A DNA stretch of 64,000 nucleotides from an uncultured Gemmatimonadales bacterium (GCA_963798085.1 CAWCRS010000010.1:64001-128000), one strand, 5' to 3'; counted from the first letter of the stretch, positions 39,001 to 48,000 are shown. Numbers: made by a program.

Positions 39001-42000
39001 GTGTTGCGGCGTCTAACTTGACGCTCAAGCTGTGGGAACGAGGCTCGTGCGCACGATGCCTGAGGGCAGGCGTGGCCGGCCCGGGTTCTGCGGTTCGGAC
39101 TGCCGAACGACAATCCGAGCGGCTTCCCGAGCACTTCGGGAGGGAGCATGTGGCTGGCTCCGCGCGTGTTGTGGAATGCTGGTCTCCGGTGGGTCACTGA
39201 CGCTCTCGCGGGCGGACCGATCGTCGACCGTGCTGCAGTGCATGCGCTCCTGAAACACCTGCTCATCCATCCTGTTGCCATTCCATTCGTCGCCAATCCG
39301 TTGCTGGATCTGCCATGCATTGCGCTTCTGCAGGCAACGCACGAGCGGCCAGCGCGGTGCGCCATATCAGCACGACCGGCTGCCTGCCGGCCGCTCTTCG
39401 GAAGGGAGGGCGTACATGTATAGGGGTCGATGGAGTCTGGCTGCAGGTGCGCTCGTGTTTTCCGGACTGCTGGCTTCCGCCTGCGTGCGTACGGAGCGGG
39501 TGCTGGTGGACATTCCGCCCTACGAGAATCCGCCCACTGCCGCGCAGGGCTTCCTGGGTTACACCAACAGTGCGACCTCCAAACAGCCCGTTTGCGGCAA
39601 CTGCCACATCGGCCACTTCGAGGCGTGGAAGGGCACGCGGCATGCCAGCGCCTGGACGGACCTGCAGGCCAGCGGGCATGCGACCAATGCCTGCAACAAC
39701 TGCCATTCCGTGAGCGCGAACGGCAATCGGGTCACTGACTCCCTGGTTGCGTATGCGGCCACGAAGGACAAGCGGTACCAGGATGTGCAGTGTGAGAACT
39801 GCCATGGACCGGGGCTCGAGCATGTGACCAACCCGGACGCGACGCAGCCGCTGGCGTCCATCGTGGTGGGGACCGATCTCACCAGCGGTTGTGGCGAGTG
39901 TCATCGGGGAACGCACACGCCGTTCATCGAGGAGTGGACGCAGTCCGCTCACAACAACAAGCACGCGTCGCCGCAGACCAACGCCTCGTGCGTGCAGTGC
40001 CACGAGGCGCGCGGCATCTTCGCTGCCTGGGGCGTGAACACCAACTATCTGGAGAAGAACCAGACGACGCCGATCAACATCGGGTGTCCGGTCTGCCACG
40101 ACCCGCACGAACGGCGCAATCCGCATCAGCTCCGGTTCCCGATCAGCGATCCCAATGTCGACACCAACCTGTGCATGAAGTGTCATCACCGCCGGAGTGA
40201 GCCTGACCCGACCAAGGCCTCTTCCGGGCCGCACTCGCCGCAGGGGCCCCTGCTCCTGGGCGAGAGCGTCGGCTGGGTACCCCCTAACTTCACCTACACG
40301 GACAAGATCATCGGCACCCACGGCACGGAGGCGAACCCCGAGCTCTGCGCCGGCTGTCACGTCAGCGCTTTCAATGTGACGGACCCGGCCAGCGGCAACC
40401 TGGTGTTCCACGCCACCGGTCACCTGTTCAATGCGATCCCCTGCCTGGATTCGCAGGGAAAGCCGACGACATCCGACACCTGCCAGCTCTCCGAGCGCAC
40501 GTTCAAGGCCTGTGCCGCGAGCAGCTGTCACGGCACCGAGAGCGCAGCCCGCTCCGCGCTCACGGTGGCCCGCGGTCGCATTGACGATCTGGTCACTTCG
40601 CTCAACGCGCTGCTGAGCCGCGTCCCCAAGACGGAATTCGACGATAACGACGGCAAGCTGACGACAGCGGAGGGCGCCAAGTTCAATTCGGCGCTGGGCG
40701 CAATGGACGGCGCACCCATCCACAATCCGTTCCTGGTGGAGGCGCTGCTCACGGCCAGTATCAAGCAGGTCATGACCGATTACGGGCTGCAGGCTCCGCC
40801 CAGCCTCATCCTGGAGGACGTGCTGAGGGTGGAGGCCAGGCAGTAAAGCAGCCCCGGATCGACGCAGACGAGCACACCCTGTTCGCAGGGAGGGACCTCG
40901 TATCAGCGATGAGGCAGGCATCGCGGGCGGTGGCCGTCCTGGCGCTGGCACTAACCGCGTGTCAGAAGGCCGCCGCCCCTCCGGCGCAGGCTGGTGCTGA
41001 TTCGACCGCGGCAGCCGCGGCAACGGACACGGCGCCGGCCAGGGCGATCACGCCCATTCCCTTCGTCATGCGCACGAACCCGAACCGGTTCGCGCACTAC
41101 GCGCATCGTGGCGTCTCCTGCAGCACCTGTCACCCGGCGGTACCCGGCCACGGCAGGCACGGCGCGCTGGCCTGCTCCGAGTGCCACGAGCAGATCGGCG
41201 CCACCGCGACGGCAGCGCCGGTTACTTCCGTCGAGTGCAACGCCTGCCATCACGCCGCCGACCAGGCACGACCCTGCCTCGAGTGTCACGGCAGCGCACC
41301 GGCGGGCCCACTCGCCGTGCGCACGGCAGTGCGCGTGTCGGTGCGCCCGGCCACGGAGGAGCGCAGCCTCACCTTTGATCACGCGCGGCATCAGAGTCTG
41401 GCCTGTGGTGAATGCCATGCGGACAAGCCGCACGTGGGTGCGCCCCGACCCTGCAGCGCGTGTCATGATCGGCATCACCGGCCCGATGCGCAGTGTTCGT
41501 CGTGTCACCAGGCGGCGCTGCTGCCCATGCATGATCGCTCAGCCCACCGTGGCTGCGGGGGCAGTGGCTGCCATCAGGATCCGGTGGTAGCCAGCCTGCC
41601 GCTGACCCGTCCGGTGTGTCTCGTGTGTCATCGCGATCGGCAGGATCACGAGCCCGGCGAGAATTGCGCACGCTGCCATCTCCTGAGCACAGGCGACGGA
41701 CCGCGCAGCATTCCGGCCGCGCCGCGCGGGGAAGGGCGTTGATGCGACACCGCTCGAGCCTGGTGTTCGCCCTGGCTCTCTGGTCCGTCGCGGCCTCACG
41801 CGCAACTGCACAGAGCGCGCGCATTACCGGTGTGACCAGCATGCAGTACGTGCAGCTGCGTCCACTCGTGGAAGACAGTGTGTCCGTGCTGGACGCCATC
41901 GGTGATGGCCTCATCCGGCGCACGGCGAATGGACAGCTGGTGCGCTGCGTGACCGGTGTGCCGTACTGCCAGTTCACGCGCTCGGCGGCACGCACGGAAG

Positions 42001-45000: not shown

Positions 45001-48000
45001 CAACCCCGCGCTGCGCACGGATCAGGTGTCGGAGTACTGGACGTCGGTGCACGGGCATCGGCTCGCGGAAGCGAACGACCCGAACGTGGCGACCTGCGTG
45101 GACTGCCACCGCGTGCACGAGATCCGGCCGCCCAACGATCCGAAGTCCAGCGTGTTCCCGCTGAATGTGGCCGAGACCTGCGGCCATTGCCACGCCGACG
45201 ACAAACGCATGGCGCAGTACAGGATACCGACCGATCAACTGAGCAAGTGGCGACAGAGCGTGCACGGGCGGCTGATGTCGGAGAAGGAAGACCTCTCGGC
45301 GCCGACCTGCAACGATTGTCACGGCAATCATGGCGCAACGCCGCCCGGCATCGGCTCCATCCGCAATGTGTGCGGCCAGTGTCACGCCACTAACGCCGAT
45401 TTCTTCAGCGCAAGTGGTCACGTCGAGATCTTCGAAAAGGCGGGATTGCCCGGCTGCGAGACCTGCCACAGCAATCACGCGATCATGCCGGTGAGTGACG
45501 ATATCCTGGTGCGGCGCAATGACGAGGTCTGCCGCCGCTGTCATGCTCAGAATGACACGCTCGGCGGCGAGTTTCGCGCCATGGCGCTGTTGCTCGATTC
45601 GCTGAAGACCAGCTTCGATGAGAGCCAGCAGATTCTGCGCGACGCCGCCAATGGCGGAATGGAAGTCAGCCAGGCGCAATTCGAGCTGGAGGATGTGAAC
45701 AACGCGCTCACCAAGGCGCGTTCGTCCATCCACACATTCCATGTCGAACCCGTCAGAACGAATGTGGAAGCCGGCCTCAAGCTCACGGCCGCCGGCATCG
45801 CGCGTGGCCGCGACGCGCTGGGCGAGCATACGTTCCGCCGCCAGGGCCTGGCCCTGAGCGGTCTCGTGATTCTGCTGCTCATTACGGGCCTGCTTCTGAA
45901 GATCCGGCAACTCGAAGCGCGCAGCGCGCACGCCAACGGTGCAGCGGGCAGCCTGGAGGAGGACACGCATGGCTGACAGAAAAGCTGAACGGGTTACGCG
46001 CAAGCATTTCGTCGACTGGCTGATCGGCTCCAGCCTGGGCGGATTCCTGGTCGCCGTATTCTATCCGGTCACGCGCTACCTGATTCCGCCGCCGGTGAAA
46101 GAGGCGTCCGTCGGGTCTGTCACGGCGCCGTTCCAGCCCGGCGACCTGCCGGCGAATTCCGGCAAGATCTTCAAGTTCGGCAACGTGCCGGGCATCCTCG
46201 TCCGCACGCCGGCGGGTGAACTGCGCGCATTCTCGGCGCGCTGCACGCATCTCGCCTGCACGGTGCAGTATCGTGACGACCTGAGTCAGATCTGGTGCGC
46301 GTGTCACAACGGTCATTATGACCTGAACGGGCGCAATGTGGCTGGTCCTCCGCCACGCCCGCTCGAATCCTACGACGTCGCCGTGCACGGCAACGAAATC
46401 GTCGTGCGGCGCCGGGCCTGACGGCAGCCATGGTACGCGAGCGATTCTCCGCACTGATCCACTGGCTGGACAACCGCATTGGGGTCAGCGGCCTGGCGCC
46501 GCTGGCGCGCAAGAAGAAGGTGCCGGTGCACCGCCACACGTTCTGGTACTACATGGGCGGGATGCTGGTCTTTCTGTTCATGCTGCAGGTTTCCACGGGC
46601 GTGCTTCTCCTGTTCTACTACCGTCCCAGTGCCGAGCACGCGTACGAATCCGTGCAGTTCCTGATGGCGGAAGTGAAGTTCGGCTGGCTGGTGCGGTCGA
46701 TTCACGCGTGGGGCGCGAACCTCATGATCTTCATGATCTTCGTGCACCTGTTCAGCGTGATGCTGCTCAAGGCCTATCGCAGCCCGCGCGAGCTGACGTG
46801 GCTGTCCGGCGCCCTGCTGCTCATGGTGGCTCTCGGCCTGGGCTTCACCGGTTATCTGCTGCCCTGGAACACACTCTCCTTCTTCGCCACACGCGTGGGC
46901 ACCGAAATACCCGGTGTGCTGCCCGGGGTCGGCCAGTTCATCCGCCAGTTCCTGCGCGGCGGCGAGGACATCAGCGGCGCCACGCTCACGCGCTTCTATG
47001 CGCTGCACGTCTCGGTGCTGCCGGGAATGGCCATCATGCTCATCGGCCTGCACGTGCTGCTGGTGCAGAAGCACGGCATGAGCGTGCCGCCCGGCGTGGA
47101 GAAGCAGGGCGGGAAAATGCGCAGCATTCCCTTCTTCCCTAACTTCCTGTTACGCGACCTGGTGGGCTGGCTGTCCGCGCTCACCATTCTGGCCGCGCTG
47201 GCGGCGTTCTGGCCGGCCGAGCTGGGTCAGAAGGCGGATCCCTTCGCGCCGGCCCCCGCCGGCATCCGGCCCGAATGGTACTTCATGTTCCTGTTTCAGA
47301 CGCTGAAATACCTGCCCGCGAAGATTCTGGGAATCGATGGCGAGCTGATCGGCATCGCGGGATCCGGCATCGCGGCGGTCGTGCTGCTGATCGTTCCCTT
47401 CGTGGATCGCCGCTCCAGCAGGCTCTGGACCTTCGTGGCCTGGGGCGCCCTCCTGTACATCATCGTGCTGACCACGCTCGGCTACATGGCCAATCCGGAG
47501 AGCTGACGCGTCACGCCGACTGCAGGTGACGGTGGCGCATCGCCAGGTGCAGCAGCACGACTTCGACGGGCAAGGCGGCCCATATGGTGATGCCCAGTGC
47601 CAGCAGCGCCGCGCCGGCGGCTGACACACGCGCATTCGTCCACCAGATTTCGGGACGGATGATCACCAGTGCAACCAGCAGCACGGTGAATGTCGTGATG
47701 CCCAGCACTGCGCCCCAGCGCCGCTCCGGCCAGCGTTGCACGGCATTGCTCACCGCACGCCACGCTTCACGCGCACACCAGCCGCACACCACCGCTCCCG
47801 CCACCCAGCCGAGTGCCGCCCCACCGATCAGGAACGGCTGGTGTACTGCGATCGCCCAGCGCGAGATGGAGATCCACAGCGTGATCATGAAGCTCACGAG
47901 AACGGCAGGAATGGCCCAGATCAGGCCTGCAATCGCCGCAGCAGCAGCGCGACGCCGGCTCATATCCGCGGACCGACCAAGGACACCGAGCACGCTGCCG

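Follow-up and report, generated by a model that had tools for sequence, protein, structure and literature searches.

A Rieske/cytochrome b complex encoded with an outer-membrane barrel and four multihaem cytochromes in Gemmatimonadota: a candidate electron path from the quinone pool to the cell surface

Introduction

By which route might electrons of the membrane quinone pool reach the cell surface in a soil Gemmatimonadota bacterium that encodes a Rieske/cytochrome b complex together with multihaem cytochromes and an outer-membrane barrel? The question is raised by seven co-directional, tightly packed genes, here called A to G, at positions 39416-47506 of the window, the whole 64,000-nucleotide stretch of DNA that was analysed. 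The quinol modules described for extracellular electron transfer are CymA, of the NapC/NirT type, and CbcL/MtoC/MtrH (PMC6295460). The window differs from them in using a Rieske/cytochrome b complex, and its cytochrome B is without a NapC-like head. The survey's finding had read the locus as a trans-envelope wire in which a bc complex takes the place of a NapC/CymA-type enzyme. We have followed up this reading with gene calls, structure predictions and comparison across genomes.

Results

The locus and its gene calls

The features of the operon are as follows.

39416..40846, + strand: A, nonahaem lipoprotein cytochrome, candidate surface-side terminal (haem motifs, LASAC lipobox)
40909..41742, + strand: B, short c3/c7-like lipoprotein cytochrome (9 CxxCH and one CX4CH, LTAC lipobox)
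41742..43218, + strand: C, outer-membrane beta-barrel of about 490 residues, unnamed family, split over two frames (frame reading)
42571..42573, + strand: frameshift site in barrel C, a GGG run (comparison with intact relatives)
43215..44627, + strand: D, 16-haem cytochrome with Sec signal, constant partner of the barrel (16 CxxCH)
44624..45976, + strand: E, 9-haem cytochrome with signal peptide and a C-terminal membrane helix at residues 409-427 (9 CxxCH)
45969..46421, + strand: F, Rieske iron-sulfur protein (PF00355, 46 bits)
46430..47506, + strand: G, cytochrome b of the fused b6 plus subunit-IV type (Hx13H, Hx14H, PEWY)

Starts and stops overlap at the junctions B/C, C/D, D/E and E/F, a gap of 62 nt separates A from B, and the operon is flanked on both sides by divergent or convergent genes. 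All six genes other than the barrel are intact. A motif count reproduced the 8, 9, 16 and 9 CxxCH sites reported for A, B, D and E (sum 42), and two CX4CH motifs bring the haem sites to 44. The Pfam assignments were recovered likewise, comprising Cytochrome_C554, Cytochrome_C7, Paired_CXXCH_1, Cytochrom_CIII and Mtrc-MtrF_II-IV_dom for the multihaem proteins and Rieske, Cytochrome_B, Cytochrom_B_N_2 and Cytochrom_B_C for the bc genes. All seven genes stand in the same order in the genomes G010, G013 and G017, and then in five more. The paralogue reported on contig C7 is an A-B-C-D set without E-F-G, with D split over two frames.

A Rieske/cytochrome b complex with a putative nonahaem subunit

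The Rieske protein F carries its cluster boxes as CTHLAC at residue 92 and CACH at residue 110, of the form CxHxxC plus CxCH, and has a match of the b6f PetC-like type below cut-off. In cytochrome b (G), the bis-histidine haem ligands are found as Hx13H at residue 92 and Hx14H at residue 193, and the Qo-site motif PEWY lies at residue 281. G matches PF00033 with 175 bits, and cytochrome b6 and b chains at E values of 1e-58 to 1e-40. It is the sole PF00033 match of the genome, which is 90% complete, as the survey had stated. An assignment of G as the ExtP equivalog of an Ext cluster was rejected, the score on the NCBIfam cytb_ExtP model being 210 bits against a cut-off of 290. Complexes of the Rieske/cytochrome b kind are of the Q-cycle type and are expected to translocate protons.

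Instead of a monohaem cytochrome c1 or f, the operon has the 9-CxxCH cytochrome E with its C-terminal helix, and a homologue of E lies immediately upstream of the Rieske and cytochrome b genes in related loci. E stands where c1 would in a bc complex, as a variant subunit. Besides three haem-copper oxidase loci, the genome has an operon for alternative complex III (ACIII), which lies within the window itself; ActD of this complex was found in 40 of 41 relatives. Because ACIII is thus near-universal, the bc complex is understood as accessory.

An unnamed barrel and its frameshift

Barrel C belongs to a family that is found mainly in Gemmatimonadota and whose 616 homologues are, every one, annotated as hypothetical. 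Neither half of the window's copy had a match in Pfam or NCBIfam searches. The G010 orthologue, modelled with AF2 (pLDDT 82.3), has about 24 strands and no plug domain, as in a porin-cytochrome barrel (at least about 20 strands, plugless); the window's own copy is the frameshifted one. Foldseek returned generic outer-membrane barrels only, with MtrB at rank 21. Membership in the MtrB/PioB family (PF11854) was rejected, there being no profile match and 6r2q_B aligning at 9% identity. A plugless barrel of about 24 strands would require a filler.

The first reading frame of C covers 41742 to about 42572, and the next continues at about 42574 and ends at 43218. The split can be explained by one surplus base in the GGG run (42571-42573), in agreement with the single frameshift noted in the survey; the relatives have one open frame. 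The lesion could be real, with the operon decaying and the conduit non-functional in this genome. That reading would be in keeping with the frameshifted D of the set on contig C7 as well as with the search for a near-identical intact copy of C, which found none, the closest full-length relative being 67-68% identical; among short-read contigs, none bridges 42571-42573. However, two of the three COX1 loci, ActB and ActC are split too, which indicates indel errors in the assembly, and the site is a homopolymer run in an operon whose remaining six genes are intact. Decay is accordingly considered very unlikely, and an assembly error is the more likely cause of the frameshift.

The 16-haem cytochrome D as barrel partner

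All 72 barrel loci that were examined have D next to the barrel, and its 16 CxxCH motifs are kept in 37 of 40 orthologues; a sequence search for solved relatives of D returned none. The complex of C and D, modelled for the G010 orthologues with our own alignments and with haems left out of the model, scored 0.73 (runs of 0.73, 0.77 and 0.71), and the best of three controls scored 0.00. The runs share at least 55% of contacts, with a partner pLDDT of at least 74. The mark which the pair passed is attained by 116 of 157 solved complexes and by 2 of 215 mismatched pairs; since the structure of a similar complex, MtrAB (6r2q), has been solved, part of this result may stem from that similarity. The contacts of lowest error join the nearly invariant FELWTIWGAF loop of the barrel to the invariant A409/R410 and P439/H440 of D. 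The model thus predicts the C-terminal third of D inside the barrel lumen.

The lipoprotein cytochromes A and B

A combines eight CxxCH with one CX4CH motif, the latter invariant among 53 aligned sequences, and its Pfam matches are C554/C7/Paired_CXXCH. The lipobox follows the strict pattern in 41 of 54 orthologues, and the other 13 have, by eye, a Cys at the equivalent place. The AF2 model (pLDDT 87.7) has as nearest folds 6qvm_A, the S-layer undecahaem cytochrome of Carboxydothermus ferrireducens (E 1.6e-7, TM 0.42), and OcwA of Thermincola (6i5b_A, E 3.4e-7, TM 0.51), at 16-19% identity and with weak sequence matches. Both are solved surface cytochromes from Gram-positive cell walls of iron reducers, whereas A is a diderm lipoprotein with nine haem sites. 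Behind OcwA and OmhA, NrfA nitrite reductases follow as fold matches (E 0.02-0.08, TM about 0.3). A is found in 62 of 72 barrel loci. With its OcwA-like predicted fold it is a candidate cytochrome of the cell surface.

B matches Cytochrom_CIII with 49 bits. Its assignment as a NapC/NirT quinol dehydrogenase was rejected, since it starts with a lipoprotein signal, not with a membrane helix leading into the first haem motifs, and a Pfam search gave no PF03264 match for it.

One barrel core with exchanged inner-membrane modules

The barrel is present in 180 of 401 genomes, and its pair with the 16-haem D is a phylum-wide, unnamed core. A homologue of D was found within the same family in 18 of 24 genomes, and in two other families in 1 of 8 and 0 of 8, a smaller sample (24 + 8 + 8) than the earlier one (40 + 40 + 40) yet with the trend of its 31/40, 5/40 and 0/40. 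The survey had taken the whole bc-to-surface arrangement for a conserved trait of family RSA9. This does not hold for the cytochrome b, whose orthologue was found in only 5 of 24, and in 2 of 7, family genomes and is missing from G001 of the same genus, while genomes of six further families have it. Orthologous cytochrome b is encoded in 38 genomes besides this one: 21 of them have the barrel within 10 kb and three have it at 12-21 kb, and nine have other module genes within 10 kb; two (G233 and G413) have the E-Rieske-cytochrome b trio without a module gene within 10 kb, and in three the contigs are too short to judge the trio's neighbours. Families f10 and f11 have related bc complexes that include a multihaem subunit; their genomes yielded the barrel in 0 of 13 and 0 of 3 cases.

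Across the 72 barrel loci, the inner-membrane genes vary. A long form of B with a NapC/NirT-like membrane head is present in 32, although the match is weak (Pfam 20-31.5 bits, with 3 of 12 tested proteins exceeding the cut-off of 24.1; of 11 tested in one search, 3 had no NapC/NirT match at E <= 1e-3). Orthologous bc genes are present in 18 loci, b561/CbcL-like multihaem fusions in 15 and a Mo/FeS/NrfD module in five; with the queries used, none of these modules was found in 13. The NapC-like head is found in none of the eight loci with the window's gene order, all of which have a short B of 9 CxxCH; in 39 loci that lack bc genes, B has a median of 18. One barrel core is thus combined with different inner-membrane quinone modules, namely a NapC/NrfH-like head, a Rieske/cytochrome b complex plus E, a CbcL-like protein or a Mo/FeS/NrfD module. 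That other barrel loci carry CymA- and CbcL-type modules supports an equal functional slot for E-F-G. The substitution of a bc complex for a NapC/CymA-type enzyme, as proposed in the survey, gains comparative support from this pattern.

Discussion

The bc-to-surface architecture had been put forward as new, but two precedents are already published, the Geobacter ext cluster and petB/petC porin-cytochrome clusters in MAGs. According to passages of PMC5877670, extHIJKLMNOPQS of Geobacter sulfurreducens encodes a porin-like protein (ExtI), cytochromes (ExtKL, ExtM, ExtN and ExtS), a Rieske protein (ExtO) and a cytochrome b (ExtP), and so shares with the window a porin-like protein of the outer membrane, a Rieske protein, a cytochrome b of the b6 type and several multihaem cytochromes, among them a lipoprotein. 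The window, from a different phylum, is distinct in having cytochrome b fused with subunit IV, in being without rhodanese and selenoprotein, in its barrel without detectable link to any named family, and in its haem numbers (9, 10, 16 and 9, compared to 5, 12, 10 and 4). One sentence of PMC13264449 (2026) states that several porin-cytochrome clusters in bins hold cytochrome b and Rieske genes (petB/petC); its Table S3 assigns three of the four bins to Acidobacteriota and the fourth to Gemmatimonadota (Gemmatimonadales, GWC2-71-9). The passages and Table S3 of that study compared here contain no analysis of barrel family, partner, module swapping or distribution.

Analogies exist with Shewanella MtrCAB and Geobacter Pcc (OmbB-OmaB-OmcB), namely a wide plugless barrel, a non-lipoprotein multihaem cytochrome as predicted filler and a neighbouring lipoprotein cytochrome. 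MtrA sits inside MtrB, and MtrB (6r2q_B) is among the fold matches of the window's barrel family. The analogy is without sequence homology (no PF11854 match, no solved relatives of D, MtrB at rank 21 with 9% identity). Unlike those systems, the window would have an inserted cytochrome of 16 haems, not 10 or 8, and, compared with MtrCAB, its surface candidate is OcwA-like rather than MtrC-like.

Several other uses of the same genes need to be weighed. The bc complex with its 9-haem subunit could be an ordinary periplasm-facing respiratory complex that feeds oxidases or periplasmic reductases, the adjacent barrel reflecting co-regulation or chance. The solitary trios of G233 and G413, the related trios of f10 and f11, two families that yielded no barrel homologue, and known multihaem subunits of Rieske/cytochrome b complexes, as in anammox according to a passage of PMC12954380, are consistent with such a role. 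However, ACIII is at hand in nearly all relatives and in the window while orthologous cytochrome b is sporadic in the family, the genes for D and E overlap by stop and start, the barrel is close to the orthologous cytochrome b in 21 of 38 genomes, and the short B accompanies bc in eight of eight loci, all of which makes the periplasm-facing role improbable. Alternatively, the module might serve a soluble substrate, A being a NrfA/OcwA-like enzyme acting on small N, S or Se/Te oxyanions and the barrel forming or gating the route of the substrate, a role that has been proposed for ExtI of Geobacter. Such a function is suggested by the NrfA folds among the matches of A, by the 210 bits of G on a model belonging to a selenite/tellurite operon, and by the tie of ExtI to selenite and tellurite reduction in passages of PMC5877670. 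Against it, the NrfA matches are weak, the ExtP score falls under its cut-off, an ExtH-like rhodanese gene is absent, the barrel has no NCBIfam match and D is predicted to fill it; we regard a soluble substrate as distinctly unlikely.

The same wire could also run mainly inward: A and D would take up electrons from a cathode, Fe(II) or Mn(II), and the bc complex would drive them 'uphill' into the quinone pool. Both bc complexes and multihaem conduits can in principle work in reverse, CymA- and CbcL-type modules occur in iron reducers and iron oxidisers alike (PMC6295460), and for Tenderiales a division of forward and reverse flow between ACIII and bc1 has been proposed (bioRxiv 10.1101/2022.05.06.490989). 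On the other side, the RuBisCO large subunit was not found in the 90% complete genome, so that no need for reverse flow of the usual kind is apparent, and no sequence feature fixes the direction. A mainly inward flow appears unlikely.

Based on this evidence, the products of the seven genes on balance probably form a single route by which electrons travel from the quinone pool of the membrane to the cell surface. The survey's trans-envelope wire is thereby supported in part, and is extended by the plugless barrel of about 24 strands, the predicted insertion of D and the OcwA-like A. On this route, F and G would oxidise quinol as a minimal Rieske/cytochrome b complex, of which membrane-anchored E would be the c-type subunit. 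We infer that E passes electrons to D or B, the route to the 16-haem D perhaps leading via the short lipoprotein cytochrome B. D would be seated in C, as the complex model predicts, with its C-terminal third plugging the barrel and its N-terminal two thirds extending into the periplasm, and the OcwA-like nonahaem lipoprotein A would be the likely outer terminal. Outward flow, probably to an outside acceptor of fairly high potential, is the favoured direction, since more energy is conserved by a Q-cycle enzyme than by one of the NapC type, at the cost of needing a more positive acceptor.

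Operon organization

Seven forward-strand genes, here called A to G, span 39416-47506 by gene calls and encode two lipoprotein cytochromes (A, B), a barrel protein (C), a 16-haem (D) and a 9-haem (E) cytochrome, a Rieske protein (F) and cytochrome b (G). Their junctions comprise TGATG at B/C, ATGA at C/D and D/E, an 8-nt overlap at E/F and an 8-nt gap at F/G. Because both flanking genes lie on the other strand, the transcription unit is understood to run exactly from A to G. A scan for promoter-like sites (none in 38700-47800) and terminator-like sites (6 against 4.1 expected) was uninformative.

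Operon and surroundings in the window
39416-47506 (+): operon A to G
35477-38803 (-): upstream neighbour, a single 1108-aa ORF with phosphotransferase (APH), Peptidase_M23 and class-III aminotransferase; an unusual fusion or a read-through of neighbouring genes
47511-48227 (-): downstream neighbour
49618-51540 (+): trehalase, seemingly unconnected with the operon
51473-54586 (-): AcrB-type efflux pump, likewise seemingly unconnected

The CxxCH counts in the survey's finding (8, 9, 16 and 9 for A, B, D and E) were reproduced by motif count in the window; A and B each hold one extra CX4CH, that of A being invariant among 53 aligned orthologues. Lipoprotein signals open A (LASAC) and B (LTAC), D has a plain signal peptide, and E combines a signal peptide with a C-terminal membrane helix (residues 409-427). 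Both Rieske boxes were found in F. G is a fusion of b6 and subunit IV with Hx13H, Hx14H and PEWY all present, and it is the sole PF00033 match in the source genome (G000, 90% complete).

C is read in one frame from 41742 and in the next from about 42574. Judged against relatives whose barrel is intact (INDARLR and similar), the frame breaks at the GGG run 42571-42573, and a single surplus base there would explain it; barrel homologues are single ORFs of about 480-560 aa. One soil read run contained 28% of the sampled words, and its short-read contigs covered 40248-42409 only, in pieces, with none bridging 42571. No intact barrel of near-identical sequence was found in the records; for the N-terminal half, the closest full-length relative shows 67-68% identity. 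Other genes in pieces in the G000 assembly are two of the three COX1 loci, ActB, ActC and the paralogous D on contig C7. The broken COX1 loci (C3:435189-436533 and C9:138348-139706) fall into 4-5 pieces each, in different frames, which suggests many indel errors in the assembly. Since genes expected to be intact are also split, we lean towards an assembly error, rather than a real lesion, as the origin of the frameshift in C.

The barrel family and its 16-haem partner

The barrel had no match in Pfam or NCBIfam. Homologues numbered 616 at E <= 1e-5, and among the 120 listed all were unnamed or 'hypothetical', the few named by organism were from Gemmatimonadota, and two matched PF13609. A protein atlas search returned only unnamed Gemmatimonadota clusters. 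The AF2 model of the orthologue from genome G010 (pLDDT 82.3, pTM 0.75) has about 24 strands, by our own count from the listed strands, and no plug. Foldseek retrieved generic outer-membrane barrels (OccAB3 at E 6e-10, ushers, AlgE) with TM of about 0.4, and MtrB at rank 21. A specific fold kinship was rejected on these matches, generic in Foldseek and unnamed in the atlas.

The barrel occurs in 180 of 401 sampled genomes of the phylum. Barrel loci examined numbered 72, 12 from the first relatives and 60 hand-picked from the match list (the top 40 and 20 lower), and a D homologue follows the barrel in every one; 16 CxxCH are retained in 37 of 40 D orthologues. D has no solved relative by sequence. 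The complex of barrel and D was predicted for the G010 proteins from alignments that we made ourselves, in one job and with haems absent from the model. It scored 0.73 (runs 0.73, 0.77 and 0.71), the best of three controls scoring 0.00, and passed a mark that 116 of 157 solved complexes and 2 of 215 mismatched pairs also pass, although the pass may partly reflect likeness because MtrAB, of similar architecture, is solved. At least 55% of contacts agreed between runs, with partner pLDDT of at least 74. In the model, the C-terminal third of D (residues about 248-460) touches the barrel wall all round, and the lowest-error contacts join invariant D residues to a nearly invariant barrel loop, FELWTIWGAF, which is disordered in the barrel monomer model. 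The prediction supports binding between C and D, with D placed inside the barrel.

Cytochrome A was found at 62 of the 72 barrel loci, with a lipoprotein start in all. The closest match of its AF2 model (pLDDT 87.7) was 6qvm, the Carboxydothermus ferrireducens S-layer undecahaem cytochrome (E 1.6e-7), followed by OcwA, an outer cell-wall cytochrome (6i5b, E 3.4e-7, TM 0.51), both of which A also matched weakly in sequence search; NrfA nitrite reductases came far lower (E 0.02-0.08). A is interpreted as the terminal cytochrome, probably on the surface side. From the lipid-modified cysteine onwards, many A orthologues read C-V/T-D-E, and the A of the window reads C-V-R-T-E. We take the former to resemble the acidic surface-export signal of Bacteroidota lipoproteins.

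Inner-membrane modules around the C-D core

The surroundings of the C-D core were surveyed by tblastn, with proteins from the same 72 loci as queries.

Modules found near the barrel and D (72 loci)
Long B with NapC/NirT-like N-terminal head: 32/72
Orthologous E-Rieske-cytochrome b (cytochrome b at least 55% identical): 18/72, 16 co-directional
Multihaem + b561 fusions or b561 genes, CbcL kind: 15/72
Second cytochrome b type: 12/72
Molybdopterin/FeS/NrfD sets: 5/72, 1 co-directional and immediately 3' of D
None of these modules: 13/72

Long B proteins are 550-690 aa in length and contain 17-19 CxxCH, with a membrane helix followed by a first motif of the form CxxCHxM, a form typical of NrfH. 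Of 11 heads tested, 8 matched PF03264 at E <= 1e-3, and the head of locus L019 matched besides; with scores of 20-31.5 bits, of which 3 of 12 exceed the 24.1 cut-off, the assignment to the NapC/NirT family is weak. B has a median of 18 CxxCH in the 39 loci without the Rieske/cytochrome b (bc) complex. The exact gene order of the window recurs at eight loci (genomes G010, G013, G017, G326, G418, G371, G190 and G404; families f1, f2 and f4), and at all eight B is short, with 9 CxxCH, and lacks the NapC-like head. On a D tree of 65 rows, eight rows with <80% cover having been left out, the window and these eight loci form one group (SH-aLRT 85), and bc-linked loci of f7 and f9 make up a second group, supported at 100. 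Five changes of the bc label are needed on this tree, at least three of them forced.

Module variants and stand-alone sets (coordinates within each locus)
L024, 9795-14714, and L058, 10722-13595: very large CbcL-like fusions of a multihaem periplasmic part and a b561-type membrane domain, adjoining the barrel module; that of L058 has 957 aa and 19 CxxCH
L051, 5221-6729, and L078, 12792-14255: second cytochrome b type beside barrel modules, 34-39% identical to G, with a monohaem cytochrome c fused C-terminally
L023 (genome G023), 1990-8368 (-): after D, on the same strand, a molybdopterin subunit, multihaem cytochrome, 4Fe-4S protein and NrfD membrane protein, a set resembling Qrc/ACIII that occupies the position of E-F-G; B is also short
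L021 (G000 C7:611000-630000), L020, L017 and L019: stand-alone A-B-C-D sets flanked by a HisKA_3 histidine kinase and a LuxR-type response regulator, with a PAS/GAF histidine kinase on the opposite side in L021 and L020

The place of the bc complex

The window also contains a complete operon for alternative complex III (ACIII), and ActD of this complex was found in 40 of 41 relatives. Three haem-copper oxidase loci are present in G000.

ACIII operon in the window
about 3300-11100 (-), more closely 3331-11015: c7-like multihaem ActA, molybdopterin/FeS ActB, NrfD-type ActC that is fused to ActD or adjoins it, and a monohaem cytochrome c; frameshifts split ActB and ActC

Orthologous cytochrome b is present in 5 of 24 family genomes and absent from a same-genus genome that is 91% complete. 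These family tallies, together with that of D homologues and that of ActD in the 41 relatives, take in genomes flagged unpublished (G015, G016, G019 and G026). Outside G000, 38 genomes carry orthologous cytochrome b, and their contexts were sorted by distance to the module.

Orthologous cytochrome b in the phylum sample, and its context
By family: f1 2/7; f2 3/70; f4 17/166; f5 1/93; f6 2/2; f7 10/30; f9 3/4
Barrel within 10 kb: 21/38 genomes
Other module genes (A, long B, D) within 10 kb: 9/38
Barrel 12-21 kb off: 3/38
No module gene within 10 kb: 2/38 (G233, G413)
Contig too short to judge: 3/38

Because ACIII is near-universal, cytochrome b patchy and the module close by in most of the 38 genomes, the bc complex is, as judged from gene distribution, an accessory that keeps company with the barrel module in most cases, though not in all.

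The barrel was not found in families f10 and f11 of the phylum sample, where more distant Rieske-cytochrome b genes (50-56% identity) are followed by an E-like gene. The loci concerned (L104-L108) have the order Rieske, cytochrome b, E-like cytochrome, with no barrel of this family found and weak D-like and A-like matches nearby (21-29% identity).

Discussion

The pair of barrel and 16-haem cytochrome might be understood as the core of a porin-cytochrome system of Gemmatimonadota, spread across the phylum and as yet without a name, with interchangeable inner-membrane quinone modules, namely a NapC/NrfH-like head on an 18-haem B, Rieske/cytochrome b with a 9-haem subunit, CbcL-like fusions, or Mo/FeS/NrfD sets. 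In the bc version, E, anchored in the inner membrane, and D, inserted in the outer membrane, would then link a Q-cycle enzyme to the cell surface through an almost unbroken chain of haems. We advance this proposal tentatively, holding it to be possible and somewhat short of probable.

The layout of porin, multihaem cytochromes, Rieske protein and cytochrome b is already published. Two papers describe it, for Geobacter extHIJKLMNOPQS as one cluster (PMC5877670) and, in a 2026 metagenome paper, as petB and petC in several porin-cytochrome clusters (PMC13264449), where by Table S3 of the latter one of the four bins (SAW209) is Gemmatimonadota. For the phylum, two further papers report Cyc2, DFE_448-451, DFE_461-465 and a few MtrABC matches by automated annotation in marine Gemmatimonadota MAGs (PMC11316326), and a survey count of one CbcL and two ImcH homologues in Gemmatimonadetes (PMC6295460). 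Homology of the module to DFE_448-451 and DFE_461-465 of Desulfovibrio ferrophilus was rejected, those clusters pairing cytochromes with NHL beta-propeller proteins, not barrels (PMC5815863). Likewise set aside as a Rieske/cytochrome b precedent was 'PCC4' of He et al. 2017, whose inner-membrane protein is of a 5-helix b-type rather than a bc complex (PMC5566968). In the open-access and bioRxiv literature searched, no paper was found that treats the family of barrel and 16-haem cytochrome, the complex predicted for it or the swapping of modules.

Regarding the direction of electron flow, the sequence itself is neutral, and on general bioenergetic grounds we think it more likely that electrons leave the cell for an outside acceptor of fairly positive potential. 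The RuBisCO large subunit was not found in G000, which removes the commonest reason for 'uphill' flow, a direction that could still be taken.

Gemmatimonadota are abundant in soils and sediments and have been described mostly as aerobic heterotrophs. The bc-linked version, if the proposal is true, would give common soil bacteria a route of extracellular respiration that conserves energy. Should the conduit work in the nearly half of Gemmatimonadota genomes that carry it, the phylum may contribute to the redox cycling of iron, manganese or humic matter, a capacity that automated annotation shows only as vague 'iron gene' matches. The alternation of a NapC-like anchor with Rieske/cytochrome b around a constant outer-membrane core would provide a natural comparative test of how energy yield and the accessible range of potentials in extracellular respiration depend on which quinol oxidase is used, a matter that has so far been addressed chiefly in Geobacter.
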